5,317 nucleotides of DNA from a virus (lineage: Duplodnaviria; Heunggongvirae; Uroviricota; Caudoviricetes). The notes below the pieces were generated by a model. The model saw nothing but the letters and a program-made list of their open reading frames with translations. It had not been told where the DNA came from and made no database searches. A program made the position numbers and the translations under genes. Of the stretch, positions 2 to 5,317 are shown in pieces; positions within the stretch are counted from its first letter, which is position 1, and the number at the start of each line of letters is the position of its first letter. The DNA lies in the IMG/VR virus record IMGVR_UViG_2541047680_000003, one strand, 5' to 3'.

Positions 2-592
2 GAACGCCGTGATCTGTTGAATAACGTTCTGCGCATTGGTGGTTTTATGACACCAAAAGGGAAGCCTAAAGTGCCGGAAGCACTGTTTAAAAACATCTGC
101 GACTCTCTCGGCCTAAAAACAGGAAAACGTCGCGGCAGAGATGGCGATAAGCGCCCGACATTGCGTTTTGTTGAGCCTGAGTCTGTAGCATTTATGCTTG
201 ATATTCTTGCGCAACGTCAGGAGGACGGTATGACGTTGAAAGCTCGCAAGGCGGAAAAATCAACGACCGAAGTGGATCGCGATTTGTCATTAAATATATA
301 TATGAATGGTGAAACGCGATCCACAAACACGGAGGAACAGGATCCTCCTCGTTCAGCTATATCACAGGCTTTAGCCGTATTGCCGGTGGCTGTTCCTGAG
401 TCCTGGGCGATGAGTGCTCTGCCATCAGCTGAACTGGAATCTATCAGGAGGTGGTCAGTTGACAGCATCGCATACACGTTTGCAGCCCTTTATATGACTG
501 AGTTTATGGATTTGCTGTCCGGTCATGAGATTAAGTTGCTGAAGGCTTTTATAGGCCCACGACATGCCAGCGATGAGTTTTGTGCAGTTTAG
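2..592 (+). CDS. Hypothetical protein, reading frame open to the window edge (probably 5'-partial); possibly the C-terminal part of a RepA-like replication protein
   Basis: Frame 2 has no stop from position 2 to TAG 590..592. Internal start candidates are TTG 17 (no RBS) and ATG 47 (weak GGTGG RBS). The coding region contains an ori-like inverted repeat with AT-rich core at 272..324. The RepA assignment is inferred from position and from N15/PY54 origins lying inside the 3' part of repA; no protein motif recognised. Confidence 0.45.
   Translation, partial: ERRDLLNNVLRIGGFMTPKGKPKVPEALFKNICDSLGLKTGKRRGRDGDKRPTLRFVEPESVAFMLDILAQRQEDGMTLKARKAEKSTTEVDRDLSLNIYMNGETRSTNTEEQDPPRSAISQALAVLPVAVPESWAMSALPSAELESIRRWSVDSIAYTFAALYMTEFMDLLSGHEIKLLKAFIGPRHASDEFCAV
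272..324. other. Candidate replication-origin element: perfect 10-bp inverted repeat (GTGGATCGCG / CGCGATCCAC) flanking a 33-bp, about 80% AT spacer containing (TA)5
   Basis: Seen directly: 272..281 is the reverse complement of 315..324; the spacer 282..314 is ATTTGTCATTAAATATATATATGAATGGTGAAA. Three GATC sites lie within 275..344, one in each repeat arm and one in a downstream AGGATCCT palindrome (339..346). Confidence 0.4.
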
Positions 593-1618: not shown

Positions 1619-1648
1619 TTGACGTGTGCGTCGTTTTGACGGTAAAGT
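1619..1648 (+). promoter_or_regulatory. Sigma70-like promoter of the immunity leader (TTGACG -35 at 1619..1624, TAAAGT -10 at 1643..1648, 18-nt spacer)
   Basis: Hexamer match by eye. A second TTGACG at 1636..1641 has no good -10. No transcription start site data. Confidence 0.4.
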
Positions 1649-1680
1649 TACTACGCTGCGGTAAATCCCGCAGCCGGGAC

Positions 1681-1704
1681 TCTCAACCCCGAAATCCGAA
1701 CGAC
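1681..1704 (+). promoter_or_regulatory. Upstream antisense target boxes (seqA / a1-b1 analogue): TCTCAAC 1681..1687 and CCGAACGAC 1696..1704
   Basis: 1681..1687 is complementary to the single-stranded GUUGAGA of the ncRNA (1814..1820). 1696..1704 is complementary, with one G-U pair, to the 9-nt loop 1799..1807. The order and spacing fit antiparallel pairing. Confidence 0.5.
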
Positions 1705-1708
1705 GCAC

Positions 1709-1731
1709 AACACGCGCCAGCGTGTTTTTTT
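1709..1731 (+). terminator. Rho-independent terminator / attenuator in the immunity leader
   Basis: Stem AACACGC (1709..1715) and GCGTGTT (1720..1726), loop GCCA, with a run of seven T at 1725..1731. It sits between the upstream target boxes and the structured RNA. Confidence 0.65.
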
Positions 1732-1762
1732 GTGTGTATAAGCCTGCGCATATCCGAATTAT

Positions 1763-1838
1763 GGTAGCTCAGGCGGGGCAGCCGAAAGGCTGGCCGGTGT
1801 CGTTTGGGCCGGTGTTGAGAACCCCGCTTGGGCTACCA
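1763..1838 (+). ncRNA. Structured antisense immunity RNA of the P1 C4 / P4 CI / N15 CA type (tRNA-like; probably excised from the leader transcript)
   Basis: A 16-bp closing helix (1763..1778 with 1822..1837, two G-U pairs) encloses a GAAA-tetraloop hairpin (1779..1792) and a second hairpin (1793..1813, 9-nt loop), plus an 8-nt single strand GUUGAGAA (1814..1821). ACCA follows the helix at 1835..1838. The loop and single strand are complementary to boxes both upstream and downstream. No long ORF in 1518..1897. Confidence 0.6.
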
Positions 1839-1849
1839 CCCTATAGAGA

Positions 1850-2062: not shown

Positions 2063-2292
2063 ATCAGGTAAAAATGAACACTGTTGGCCTGCTGGAGTCG
2101 TTGGATGAACGTCTGGCTCAGGTCTATGCGCTCGTGTCATCAGCCCATCGGACAGTATCCAGCTGTGAGGCGTCGATTTATCTATCAGAAGCCGGGAAGC
2201 TCCTTCAAATTGCGTGTGAGCTAACACACGAAGCACAGGGGTATTCAGCATCTCTCTCGTCGCAATTGCAGCACAATAAGGAGGCCAAATGA
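2059..2292 (+). CDS. Hypothetical protein (77 aa), middle gene of the antirepressor operon (AntA-like by position)
   Basis: ATG 2059 overlaps the upstream stop (ATGA), with GAGG at about 2048..2051. Its own stop overlaps the next start (ATGA at 2289..2292). Confidence 0.6.
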   Translation: MNQVKMNTVGLLESLDERLAQVYALVSSAHRTVSSCEASIYLSEAGKLLQIACELTHEAQGYSASLSSQLQHNKEAK

Positions 2293-3071
2293 GCGCGTTA
2301 GCTGTATTTTCGTTTCAGGAAGAGCATCAGGTTCGTGTAGTGATGATTGATAGCGATCCGTGGTTTGTAGCGGCTGATGTTTGTAATGCCATCGGGATTA
2401 TCAATCATCGTGATGCTGTTGGTAAGTTGGATGAAGACGAAAAGGGGGTCGGTTCAACAGACACCCTTGGAGGTAAACAGGGAGTGACAATTATCAACGA
2501 ATCCGGCCTCTATACCCTAATCCTCCGCTGCCGTGATGCGGTGAAGCAAGGCACAACAGCTTGGCGGTTTCGCAAATGGGTAACGAACGAAGTCTTGCCC
2601 TCTATTCGCAAAAATGGAGAGTACGTTTACATCGAGCCTGAGCCAATGCGAGCAGCGGAGCCGTTGAACTGGAGGCAGAAAGAGTATCTGCGAGGGCTGA
2701 TTAACGATATAGCACAAAGTTTTCAATACCGAAATGCCTGGATTAGTGGTGTATGGTTGGCTTTGCGTCGGGCGTGTCGTAATCCATCCCCGAACCCCAT
2801 AACGGTTGATGATTTGCCAGCAATTACGGCAGAACTGCGCCGGATTTTGACGGCTGCTGAGTCGGCATTGGGGAACATGCGCACGTATGAACGAGAGTTG
2901 TTGCGTGATGTTGTTCGTGGGGGTAGGCGGAGTATGTCGTGTGGTGATTTACCCATCACCGATATTAACTCTGATCTGGAAAAGGCGTTACCCGCGCATT
3001 TTGAACTGGCAGTTCAAAAACTTGAGCAGTTATCCGCGCAGCTAAAGCCAGCAGAAATCACCAATAAATAG
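2289..3071 (+). CDS. ant: Phage antirepressor with an N-terminal Bro-N-type domain (260 aa)
   Basis: The N-terminal 110 residues (FSFQEEHQVRVVMIDSDPWFVAADVCNAIG ... ESGLYTLILRCRDAVKQGTTAWRFRKWVTNEVLPSIRKNGEY) fit the Bro-N / antirepressor N-terminal domain pattern as I remember it. Strong RBS AAGGAGG (2278..2284). Translationally coupled to the upstream gene. Confidence 0.8.
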   Translation: MSALAVFSFQEEHQVRVVMIDSDPWFVAADVCNAIGIINHRDAVGKLDEDEKGVGSTDTLGGKQGVTIINESGLYTLILRCRDAVKQGTTAWRFRKWVTNEVLPSIRKNGEYVYIEPEPMRAAEPLNWRQKEYLRGLINDIAQSFQYRNAWISGVWLALRRACRNPSPNPITVDDLPAITAELRRILTAAESALGNMRTYERELLRDVVRGGRRSMSCGDLPITDINSDLEKALPAHFELAVQKLEQLSAQLKPAEITNK

Positions 3072-3207
3072 GGTTGACCAGCCCGAATTTATGCCCTTCT
3101 TAGAGAAGGGAAGCCTCGCAGTCGGGGCGGTGATGTCTGTGGTTGCAGCCGCGTTTCCTCCGTTACTTCTGCCCTTTGCAGGGGGCAGGCGAGGTAGGTC
3201 ACACAAC

Positions 3208-3231
3208 AAGGCACCGTTAATTCGGTGCCTT
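3208..3231. terminator. Hairpin between the convergent ant operon and telN; candidate bidirectional terminator
   Basis: Stem AAGGCACCG (3208..3216) and CGGTGCCTT (3223..3231), loop TTAATT. Flanking T-rich or G/T-rich sequence on both strands is only moderate. It lies 12 nt from the telN stop. Confidence 0.5.
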
Positions 3232-3242
3232 TACTGTATGCT

Positions 3243-5126
3243 TTAACCGAAATATGTCAGCCATGCTAACTGCATTGCTGACATGGGGCTGTTTGCACTG
3301 CCGGACCACGCATAATTCTGGCCATTATAATGAAACTCGACAACGTATGAGCCATCACCAATATTTCTCACTGGCTTAAATACCGGCTTAGATACAGGCG
3401 AAGAAGGTGCAGGCGGTTGCTGTTCTTCTACGCTCTCTTCCTCTATCTCAATTTCGTCGTCATCCAGATCGTCATCCTCTGATAATTCATCCGCCAGTTC
3501 AGGTATTGCTTCCAGTTCTTCTTCGTCAGGCATAACGATTTCTGGAGTATCTATTTTCAGTTGCCATTGTCCGTTTTCGCCAACAAATTGCCCCAGAGCA
3601 TCAGCAGCAAATTCCAGGTATCGACTAATCATTGTTGGGCTAAATTTGAACGCTCTTAGAGTGCTGTTCGTGATTTTTATAGAGGGGTCCTGCTCTACCA
3701 GCTGCTTAACTGTGTTATGCAGACGAACCCCGGCATCTCCTCTGGCGAATCCAGGCATTTCGTCATCAAGCTGCTGCAATGCTTCCAGCCTGGTATTTTC
3801 GTTTCCAGTATTTGGCCTCCATGTCTTTGAGAAGTTGGCCAGCTTGAATTGCTTATAGTGTAATTGAGTGTTTTCATCGTCATGGCCTAAGATTTCCATA
3901 AAGAAAACATCCTCATCTACGTTTTTCCAACGAGGATCTACGCGGAAAAACATTTCATACGCAATACGGGCATAAATAGCACGACTATCTTTATAAACAC
4001 GGCGGTTATCTTTGAAAAATGATTTAACCCACGGGTTAAAAGCCTTTGCTAATATGGCATTAATACGTCCGTTTTCAGAGCGTGTGTCGTTATCTCCATA
4101 ACCTTTAACGACATCATCAAAATCAGATGCTGCTGGGCATGAGCGAAGTACATTTATTAAATAAACAAATGTTTTTGCTTCGCATAATGTATATATTTTT
4201 CTGGTTATATCATCAGAAGTTCTTTTTTTAGCTTGGCCTAAAAAATCAACGGTATACTTACCAGAAACAGTAAATGTACCTTGATACATAATCTCAATCA
4301 TTCGTCTTCCTGACAATGCAGCAAGTGCAAATGCCAAAGGAGCCATACCTGAACGAGTGTTTAGATTATTTAATGTAGCAGGGCTATTTATAATATCGTA
4401 AATAGCTTGCATATATTTAGGGTAATCAATGACCACCACGTTACGTTTCTTATTGTGCAGAACGTCCGCCCATCGTTGCTGGATAGATGCGCGTTCGGCA
4501 GGGCTTAGTTGAAGATGATAGAGAATCTCATGGTTAACTTTTAGCTGATTCAACTCCTCAAGCAAGGCAGATCCTTGCTGTAGTAATTTATATAAATAAT
4601 CGCGCTTATCTTTCCAGTTATCGCTAGTTAAATCAGAAATGGCGAATTGCCACTCTTTATATTTATTTGATAATTTTAATAACTTATTATGGCTTTTGTT
4701 ATCACCAATTCTGATATTAGATAAATCTTCTGATAAAGGGAGAATTAATTTTAATTTTGCCTGTAAAGCTGACATTCTCTGGCGAATATCGGCAGCAGGT
4801 AGAGAAAGCCATGACAATAGCTCCTCATTATATAAAGGATACTTTTCAGATAGGCGATGTATATTTTTTTCAAAGCTATGATGAAGTTTATCATCAAACC
4901 GTTTTCTGGCCCTGCTCATATATGCATTGAATGTGTTGGCTGTAATTCTTTTTTCTAATCCTTTCCCCCTAAACTTTCGCTTGTCATTAAATAATGCATT
5001 TTTAAATTTTAATGCAACAGCCTTTATTTTTTTTGTTTTTTCCCCTTGAGGACGGTCAGAGTTATCTATTGACTCAACATCGCTAACAAGTGAGTTTATT
5101 AATTCACCGATTTTTACTTTGCTCAT
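3243..5126 (-). CDS. telN: Protelomerase (telomere resolvase), TelN/TelK family, 627 aa
   Basis: Length and overall sequence match my recollection of N15 TelN (631 aa). Tyr424 in QLHYKQF coincides with the published TelN catalytic Tyr424 (TelK Tyr425). RR at 274..275 and K300 are in tyrosine-recombinase-like positions. An acidic D/E linker (residues about 533..570) precedes a small C-terminal domain. Strong RBS (GGAGAGG on the minus strand) before ATG. The gene is adjacent to a half telomere palindrome. Confidence 0.93.
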   Translation of the reverse strand: MSKVKIGELINSLVSDVESIDNSDRPQGEKTKKIKAVALKFKNALFNDKRKFRGKGLEKRITANTFNAYMSRARKRFDDKLHHSFEKNIHRLSEKYPLYNEELLSWLSLPAADIRQRMSALQAKLKLILPLSEDLSNIRIGDNKSHNKLLKLSNKYKEWQFAISDLTSDNWKDKRDYLYKLLQQGSALLEELNQLKVNHEILYHLQLSPAERASIQQRWADVLHNKKRNVVVIDYPKYMQAIYDIINSPATLNNLNTRSGMAPLAFALAALSGRRMIEIMYQGTFTVSGKYTVDFLGQAKKRTSDDITRKIYTLCEAKTFVYLINVLRSCPAASDFDDVVKGYGDNDTRSENGRINAILAKAFNPWVKSFFKDNRRVYKDSRAIYARIAYEMFFRVDPRWKNVDEDVFFMEILGHDDENTQLHYKQFKLANFSKTWRPNTGNENTRLEALQQLDDEMPGFARGDAGVRLHNTVKQLVEQDPSIKITNSTLRAFKFSPTMISRYLEFAADALGQFVGENGQWQLKIDTPEIVMPDEEELEAIPELADELSEDDDLDDDEIEIEEESVEEQQPPAPSSPVSKPVFKPVRNIGDGSYVVEFHYNGQNYAWSGSANSPMSAMQLAWLTYFG

Positions 5127-5170
5127 CTTTCCTCTCCTGATTATCCGCTCGGATTATCGTAACACAATTT
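5127..5170 (-). promoter_or_regulatory. telN translation-initiation and promoter/operator region (RBS, GATTATC direct repeats, small dyad ATCCG-CT-CGGAT)
   Basis: On the minus strand the motif order is TTGTGT, 16 nt, GATAAT, then CAGGAGAGGAAAG and ATG. The GATAAT element occurs twice (plus-strand GATTATC at 5139..5145 and 5152..5158). The exact -35/-10 assignment is uncertain. Confidence 0.35.
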
Positions 5171-5249
5171 GAGAATAAGATAACTAATAACGCGTTAACT
5201 TAGCCACAAACTAACAGAACACAATAACGGATAGTAAACAAAAACACAA
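5161..5249. repeat. Three direct copies of AACACAAT (5161..5168, 5218..5225, 5242..5249) upstream of telN; candidate accessory protelomerase-binding (tos-like) repeats
   Basis: Seen directly. The motif resembles the CACA(C/T)AAT segment inside the telomere half-site (5295..5303) and the CACACAAT of the remembered N15 telRL. Confidence 0.5.
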
Positions 5250-5290
5250 TATCGGAACGTTAAAAATTGTTCCTTGACTTTGTTCTGAAG

Positions 5291-5317
5291 ATCAGCACAT
5301 AATTCCCCATTATACGC
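5291..5317. other. Half of the telomere resolution palindrome (telO/telRL half-site); the window ends at the dyad centre, implying a hairpin telomere
   Basis: ATCAGCACATAATTCCCCATTATACGC differs at only about three positions from the left half of N15 telRL as I recall it (TATCAGCACACAATTGCCCATTATACGC|GCG...). The last bases CCATTATACGC equal the left half of the 22-bp telO palindrome. Confidence 0.8.

Follow-up and report, generated by a model that had tools for sequence, protein, structure and literature searches.

A predicted telN-type protelomerase gene next to the telomere of an N15-like phage-plasmid of Escherichia

The long minus-strand reading frame near one end of the 5,317-nucleotide stretch of DNA analysed here (referred to in full as the window) raises the question whether it encodes a protelomerase, as an earlier note on the same DNA had proposed, and, if so, whether the gene is intact and what the unusual acidic region close to the C-terminus of its product might do. 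We read the frame as a telN-type protelomerase (telomere resolvase) gene of an N15-like linear plasmid-prophage of Escherichia, with a probability of about 96%. Homology, domain architecture, conserved catalytic residues, an adjoining target half-site and an N15-type gene context were all observed directly, and from the sequence we infer that the product would have telomere resolvase activity.

Searching the translated product against Pfam recovered the four protelomerase domains, each above its gathering score, near full length and in the same order as in TelK of phage phiKO2, the protein on which all four were defined (Table 1). Among all PDB sequences the sole match was the TelK crystal chain 2v6e (E 1e-294), which aligned to residues 1-536 with a single one-residue gap; with domain E-values between 1e-25 and 1e-50, the assignment is far past chance. 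Zero NCBIfam models matched the 627-aa protein. A full-length single-sequence AlphaFold2 model of the protelomerase was unusable (mean pLDDT 42, pTM 0.24), and a structural comparison with TelK was redundant because the 2v6e alignment is 81% identical.

Pairwise alignments gave overall identities of 79% with N15 TelN (gp29, 631 aa), 76% with phiKO2 TelK (640 aa; 2v6e) and 40% with Tel of the Yersinia phage PY54, the catalytic tyrosine being retained in each case. By region, similarity to TelN was highest in the stirrup (92%) and catalytic (87%) domains, followed by the muzzle (69%), the terminal module (62%) and the acidic tract (57%). Identity to TelK reached 81% over the crystallised core (residues 1-533), 75% in the muzzle and 54% in the terminal module. 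In its N-terminal half, the 627-aa protein resembles TelK slightly more; in its C-terminal half, it resembles TelN more. The likeness to N15 extends to domain order, catalytic residues, adjacency to telRL and convergence with an antirepressor operon. PY54 Tel shares the same architecture, including the acidic tract and the terminal module, and its target palindrome is probably a different one. Together, the four Pfam domains, the 2v6e match, the identity to TelN, the catalytic residues and the adjoining telRL half-site bear out the TelN-family assignment made in the earlier note, and none of the results spoke against it.

Table 1 Features of the window and of the predicted protelomerase.
Feature	Position (nt)	Strand	Residues	Basis and remarks
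RepA replication protein, C-terminus	17-592			left edge of the window
isrK-like element with terminator	1655-1730	plus
C4 antisense RNA	1757-1843	plus		74 bits (gathering score 45)
Icd-like protein	1862-2062	plus
gp31-like protein	2059-2292	plus
Bro-N antirepressor	2289-3071	plus		operon end at 3071
Perfect hairpin with 9-bp stem	3208..3231			inverted repeat AAGGCACCG n6 CGGTGCCTT; 12 nt past the stop codon, in the convergent gap
telN-type protelomerase CDS	3243..5126	minus	1-627	open reading frame list; ATG start; 627 aa plus stop codon
Small C-terminal module	3246..3389	minus	580-627	three beta-strands and one helix
Acidic tract	3417..3530	minus	533-570	PDEEELEAIPELADELSEDDDLDDDEIEIEEESVEEQQ; D/E 22/38, K/R none; poly-Glu run length-polymorphic
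Stirrup domain	3528..3800	minus	443-533	PF20818, E 3.4e-48, model positions 1-91 of 92
ResT/TelK catalytic domain	3846..4358	minus	257-427	PF16684, E 2.2e-25, 89.7 bits against a cut-off of 27
Y424 codon, predicted nucleophile	3855..3857	minus	424	ResT Y335; Tyr425 of TelN and TelK
H415			415	ResT H324, profile alignment
R382			382	ResT R296, profile alignment
Y378			378	ResT Y293, one-residue gap, profile alignment by HMMER
K300			300	ResT K224, profile alignment
R275			275	ResT R199, profile alignment
Muzzle domain	4533..4886	minus	81-198	PF20849, E 1.2e-50, model positions 1-118 of 118
TelK_N domain	4893..5117	minus	4-78	PF22853, E 2e-41, model positions 1-75 of 75
Shine-Dalgarno sequence AGGAGAGG	5131..5138	minus		read in the sequence; 4-7 nt before the ATG
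Three ATTGTGT boxes	5162-5168, 5219-5225, 5244-5250	minus		exact matches, all inside 89 bp of the telomere-gene interval
Telomere half-site GCGTATAATGGGGAATTATGTGCTGATC, read inward from the end	5290..5317	minus		telRL-type palindrome; base 5317 is the dyad centre

The closest relatives were far nearer than the reference phages. The proteins of YDC107_1 (AUO37527.1) and PhiR46_1 (XSB42741.1), together with an E. coli/Shigella cluster named 'protelomerase family protein', were 99% identical over aligned columns, and both records carry the same neighbours and telomere site as the window. Their proteins are 633 aa long with nine glutamates in the poly-Glu run, compared to three in the 627-aa protein, which also differs by a handful of substitutions (e.g. 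N374 instead of D). At the other extreme, ResT of Borrelia and TelA of Agrobacterium have the catalytic domain and the active-site set in common with the protein, but both are without the muzzle, and TelA is also without the stirrup (PMC3558466, PMC11317167). The acidic tract and the terminal module are missing from both ResT and TelA, and TelA was not matched by the family profile even at E 10.

A script check of the translation located QLHYKQF at residue 421 onward, making its tyrosine residue 424, and found R274, R275 and K300 all in place. The family profile of six proteins matched the ResT catalytic-domain chain 8vs5_A (E 2e-5) and provided the ResT counterparts listed in Table 1, where ResT numbering is the index in that chain plus 162, counted along the profile alignment. 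R275, K300, K379, R382, H415 and Y424 were invariant in the six aligned proteins. PY54 Tel conserves the catalytic Arg, Lys, Arg, His and Tyr, and has Phe at the position of Y378. The third member of the active site is therefore ambiguous from the alignment and could be either Y378 or K379; type IB topoisomerases have a lysine at the third active-site position. For TelA, the active-site set consists of R255, K286, Y363, R366, H394 and Y405 (PMC3558466), and K224, H324 and Y335 are the active-site residues named for ResT (PMC11317167).

These alignments also refine two earlier statements on the active site. Tyr424 had been described as sitting at the position of the published TelN nucleophile, which is correct by homology but not by number: the deposited TelN and TelK sequences have Tyr425, and the shared figure of 424 is partly a coincidence. 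The residue is Tyr424 here because one residue is deleted near position 306 relative to the 631-aa TelN and the 640-aa TelK. Likewise, basic residues R274/R275 and K300 had been placed at catalytic positions; K300 and R275 are retained in that role as the counterparts of ResT K224 and R199, and the catalytic arginine is the second of the pair, R275.

At the 5' end of the gene, the ATG start is supported because the Shine-Dalgarno sequence AGGAGAGG is suitably spaced and because the N-terminus MSKVKIGELIN agrees with the N-termini of TelN and TelK in the six-protein alignment. A scan with promoter consensus sequences showed no minus-strand sigma-70 match for a telN promoter between the telomere and the gene.

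Beyond the start codon, the last 28 nucleotides of the window form a telRL-type half-site, located 165 bp upstream of the start codon, with the gene start 191 bp from the telomere. Its first 11 nt reproduce the right half of the telO core of N15 without a mismatch. Over its length, 23 of 28 positions agree with N15, all five differences lying outside the core, and 23 of 25 agree with phiKO2. The YDC107_1 record reads through this end and reveals a perfect palindrome (60/60 per arm) centred on the window's last base, and PhiR46_1 annotates a 'telL site' at the homologous position. That the record stops on the dyad suggests that this may be a hairpin end of the replicon. Because the last base falls on the dyad centre and the gene lies on the minus strand, the gene reads away from the telomere, as had been stated before.

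The interval between telomere and gene also holds the only three copies of ATTGTGT in the whole window, against a chance expectation of 0.92, and these boxes align with similar ones upstream of N15 telN. In N15, degenerate L1/L2/R1/R2 copies of the L3/R3 motifs have been reported (PMC12624138). The ATTGTGT boxes probably represent degenerate versions of the outer telRL repeat.

On its other side, the gene is followed by a hairpin-forming inverted repeat in the convergent gap, for which RNA folding gave -23.5 kcal/mol (z = -6.1). At the corresponding place phiKO2 annotates a 'putative bidirectional' terminator, and we regard the repeat as a candidate bidirectional terminator; a consensus scan missed it because it is without a T-run. 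The plus-strand genes on the far side of this hairpin had been called an immunity operon on which the protelomerase gene converges. The convergence stands, as the plus-strand operon ends at 3071, but the label has to be narrowed: the converging genes form a secondary-immunity operon of the immA antirepressor type and are distinct from the primary repressor. From repA through small genes, C4-RNA/icd/ant and the convergent tel gene to the telomere, the gene order equals that of N15 genes 37 to 29.

In the reaction that we propose from the homology to TelK and TelN, a pair of subunits would bind the palindromic telRL, whose right half corresponds to the last 28 nt of the window. Tyr424 of each subunit would cleave one strand, aided by R275, K300, Y378/K379, R382 and H415. 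The two cuts would lie 6 bp apart around the dyad, a spacing found in all known protelomerases (PMC3558466), and each would leave a 3'-phosphotyrosyl intermediate. Attack of the free 5'-OH on the phosphotyrosine of the complementary strand would then convert each half into a covalently closed hairpin. Such a reaction would turn the circularised phage genome into a linear prophage and would also resolve replicated telomere junctions. The hairpin-forming cleaving-joining activity has been demonstrated in the literature for TelN and TelK, to which the 627-aa protein is 79% and 76% identical. After resolution, the protelomerase probably remains attached to the hairpins and protects them against SbcCD, as does N15 TelN, whose protection of hairpins is independent of catalysis: TelN(Y425F) is catalytically dead for resolution and still shields hairpins from SbcCD (PMC12624138, 2025). 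At 79% identity to TelN, SbcCD protection by the 627-aa protein is plausible by analogy.

The part of the protein that leaves most room for interpretation is its tail. As had been noted from the sequence, a highly acidic D/E tract separates the core from a small C-terminal domain, and this arrangement is common to TelN, TelK and PY54 Tel rather than special to the 627-aa protein. Within the subfamily, the spacing between stirrup and module is 41-58 residues with 22-32 D/E and 0-1 K/R (58 residues in TelK compared to 46 here). In the six-protein alignment, the terminal module follows the pattern KPxF...Y.W.G...AM..AW, with 13 columns invariant from the 627-aa protein to PY54 (K580, P581, F583, F598, G602, Y605, W607, G609, A611, A617, M618, A621 and W622). 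Single-sequence AlphaFold2 predicted the module as three strands followed by a C-terminal helix (mean pLDDT 76).

The poly-Glu run in the tract varies in two-residue steps among 15 near-identical alleles, with total lengths from 627 to 639 aa. None of these 15 is shorter than the 627-aa allele, which has three glutamates and an asparagine at position 374 (N374) instead of the D seen in 14 sampled members of the cluster. With just three codons, the poly-Glu run of this allele went unreported by Tandem Repeats Finder. Compared to N15, dN was 0.04 in the stirrup, 0.09 in the catalytic domain, 0.24 in the terminal module and 0.28 in the acidic tract, values usable as a ranking only, with synonymous sites saturated (dS above 1 or undefined) in the per-domain comparisons with N15, phiKO2 and PY54.

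No significant fold or sequence relatives of the module were found outside the protelomerases. An exhaustive phmmer search with the module returned 21 matches, the short ones being truncated protelomerase gene calls. Giant matches in that search (LVIVD, FG-GAP and BNR surface proteins) were rejected as non-homologous, as they share just a much-repeated DGDGxYxVEW strand motif. A word-indexed homologue search with the tail gave one fragment and nothing more.

Most likely, the acidic tract is a disordered spacer that tethers the beta3-alpha C-terminal module; the free variation of poly-Glu length among alleles fits a spacer with little constraint on its length. The strongest competing explanation holds that tract and module form a functional regulatory appendage, which might mimic DNA and autoinhibit the protein's basic DNA-binding surfaces, or might dock a partner, namely a phage or host factor in replication, partition or lysis-lysogeny control. 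We consider this explanation, in its two versions taken jointly, rather unlikely. It draws on the retention of the architecture and its invariant columns down to PY54 Tel at 40% overall identity, on the predicted independent folding of the module, and on the behaviour of truncated TelN in vivo, which required induction for near wild-type protection where the wild type did without (PMC12624138). However, TelN deleted for 541-631 or 583-631 fully kept resolution and SbcCD protection in vitro (PMC12624138), and the crystallised TelK construct lacks both tract and module, since its alignment stops at residue 536. Protelomerases of Vibrio and Halomonas, about 30% identical in a tblastn search against phage records, align up to about residue 511 only. 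The free variation of poly-Glu length among near-identical alleles and the lack of any functional lead from fold or sequence relatives of the tail point in the same direction. According to the authors of the TelN study, the role of the C-terminal domains is unknown (PMC12624138).

A bolder version, which we rate as less probable still, is that tract and clade-specific module act as an in vivo regulatory device invisible to in vitro assays, with the slippage-prone poly-Glu run as a length-tunable spacer. The device might then be a tail that mimics DNA and so prevents TelN from binding non-specific DNA, or a tethered domain that docks a replication, partition or host factor. What speaks for this version is the conservation of the architecture. 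Spacer and tethered module remain our preferred reading of the tail.

The 627-aa protein is not confined to the window. NCBI, ENA and UniRef already list its exact sequence under the names 'protelomerase [Escherichia coli]' and 'protelomerase family protein' (e.g. CAM8062858.1). The identical protein has been recorded on 51 contigs, the longest of which, at 46.5 kb, are as large as a complete N15-like genome, and its cluster at 90% identity comprises 682 members. Sequences closely related to the whole window turned up in 17 of 5426 complete E. coli genomes, on plasmids every time, and a plasmid collection contained 111 matching records. Those with high coverage and 93-95% identity belong to Escherichia and Shigella; the others are mostly distant matches (60-80% identity) from Klebsiella, Enterobacter and Citrobacter. 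N15-like phage-plasmids of Escherichia, Shigella, Klebsiella, Enterobacter and Citrobacter are a described group (PMC7969092; bioRxiv 10.1101/2025.09.12.675607).

This distribution also bears on the idea that a defective element carries the gene as a relic, decayed or without catalytic activity, which would have kept DNA binding or end protection and lost resolution. The protective role of TelN is separable from catalysis (PMC12624138), and the allele here has the shortest poly-Glu run as well as N374 where the 14 sampled members have D. Against decay, the reading frame is full length, all catalytic residues and four domains are intact, the same exact protein is found on the 51 contigs, and the target half-site is intact with its core unchanged. 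We therefore regard a relic as very improbable; the protelomerase gene is intact and of the ordinary TelN/TelK type.

Less credible still is a conventional tyrosine recombinase or integrase carrying out two-site recombination instead of hairpin formation: a telomere resolvase was reportedly converted into a Cre-like recombinase by few mutations, as the title of one study has it (PMC13221069), but here no Phage_integrase-type Pfam family was matched at E values up to 0.01, the matches being confined to the ResT/TelK catalytic family and three domains specific to TelK, the TelK core is 81% identical, and in place of two core sites there is one perfect palindrome, at the record's physical end.

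The telN-type protelomerase assignment thus places a known enzyme in its expected surroundings. Gene, family, mechanism and exact protein sequence are already public in databases and literature, and as a discovery the gene matters little. For annotation, it has value: it anchors the window at the telomeric end of an N15-like phage-plasmid and marks the window's final base as the centre of the dyad in the resolution site. Wider interest is confined to the acidic tract and the terminal module.

In its identities per domain, the protelomerase (3243-5126, minus strand) shows a slight mosaic pattern. Its N-terminal domain and muzzle are nearer to phiKO2 TelK than to N15 TelN (88% versus 85% and 75% versus 69%, respectively), whereas the stirrup (92% versus 79%), the acidic tract (57% versus 49%) and the terminal module (62% versus 54%) are nearer to TelN than to TelK. 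At the telomere half-site phiKO2 is the closer of the two phages, with 2 differences in 25 nt against 5 in 28 for N15.

Among protelomerase alleles that are otherwise near-identical, the poly-Glu run varies in length by two-residue steps, a pattern suggestive of hexanucleotide slippage within GAG/GAA codons. It comprises three Glu in the window allele and up to eleven in pure-Glu alleles, while Asp is interspersed in the two longest alleles; overall, the alleles range from 627 to 639 aa.

Features of the window discussed here, with their database matches
Feature	Position (nt)	Strand	Match
RepA primase/replication protein, C-terminal end	17-592	+	phrog_4913, profile positions 1108-1288 of 1290
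c4-a1b1 target	1642-1695		weak match
isrK	1655-1730	+	Rfam, 56.9 bits, above gathering score
Terminator-like hairpin, 3' end of isrK match	1709-1726	+	
C4 antisense RNA	1757-1843	+	Rfam, 74.4 bits, above gathering score
51-aa ORF	3091-3246	+	phrog_35352, E 2e-25
Poly-Glu run, protelomerase residues 562-564	3432-3440	-	

The 51-aa ORF, annotated as hypothetical in the Escherichia phage YDC107_1, extends across the candidate terminator hairpin of the convergent gap and shares bases with the protelomerase stop codon. It is doubtful as a coding sequence, since phrog_35352 may comprise only calls from close relatives.

Upstream of the antirepressor operon, Rfam matches to isrK and the C4 antisense RNA form a tandem pair on the plus strand (1655-1843). 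This tandem is an antisense control region of the P1/P7/N15 type for the icd/antirepressor operon that lies 3' of it. At the left edge of the window only the end of repA is present, and the full gene extends beyond it.

In the YDC107_1 record (CP025712.1), the sequence runs on through the telomere, and from position 8330 of the locus onward the protelomerase and Bro genes recur as an inverted, frameshifted second copy. This copy looks like read-through of the hairpin during assembly and not like genuine sequence. The same artefact may be present in several plasmid records of 60-90 kb in which two places match.

A further comparison with relatives concerns about 600-1520 and 2300-3070, an interval in which PhiR46_1, another phage whose protelomerase is 99% identical over aligned columns, carries a 'Spackle' annotation. 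In most E. coli relatives the matches, at 93-95% identity, fall into 3-5 pieces that together account for just 70-87% of the window. It follows that the small genes between repA and the immA region, like the antirepressor gene, are mosaic and can be exchanged between N15-like elements.
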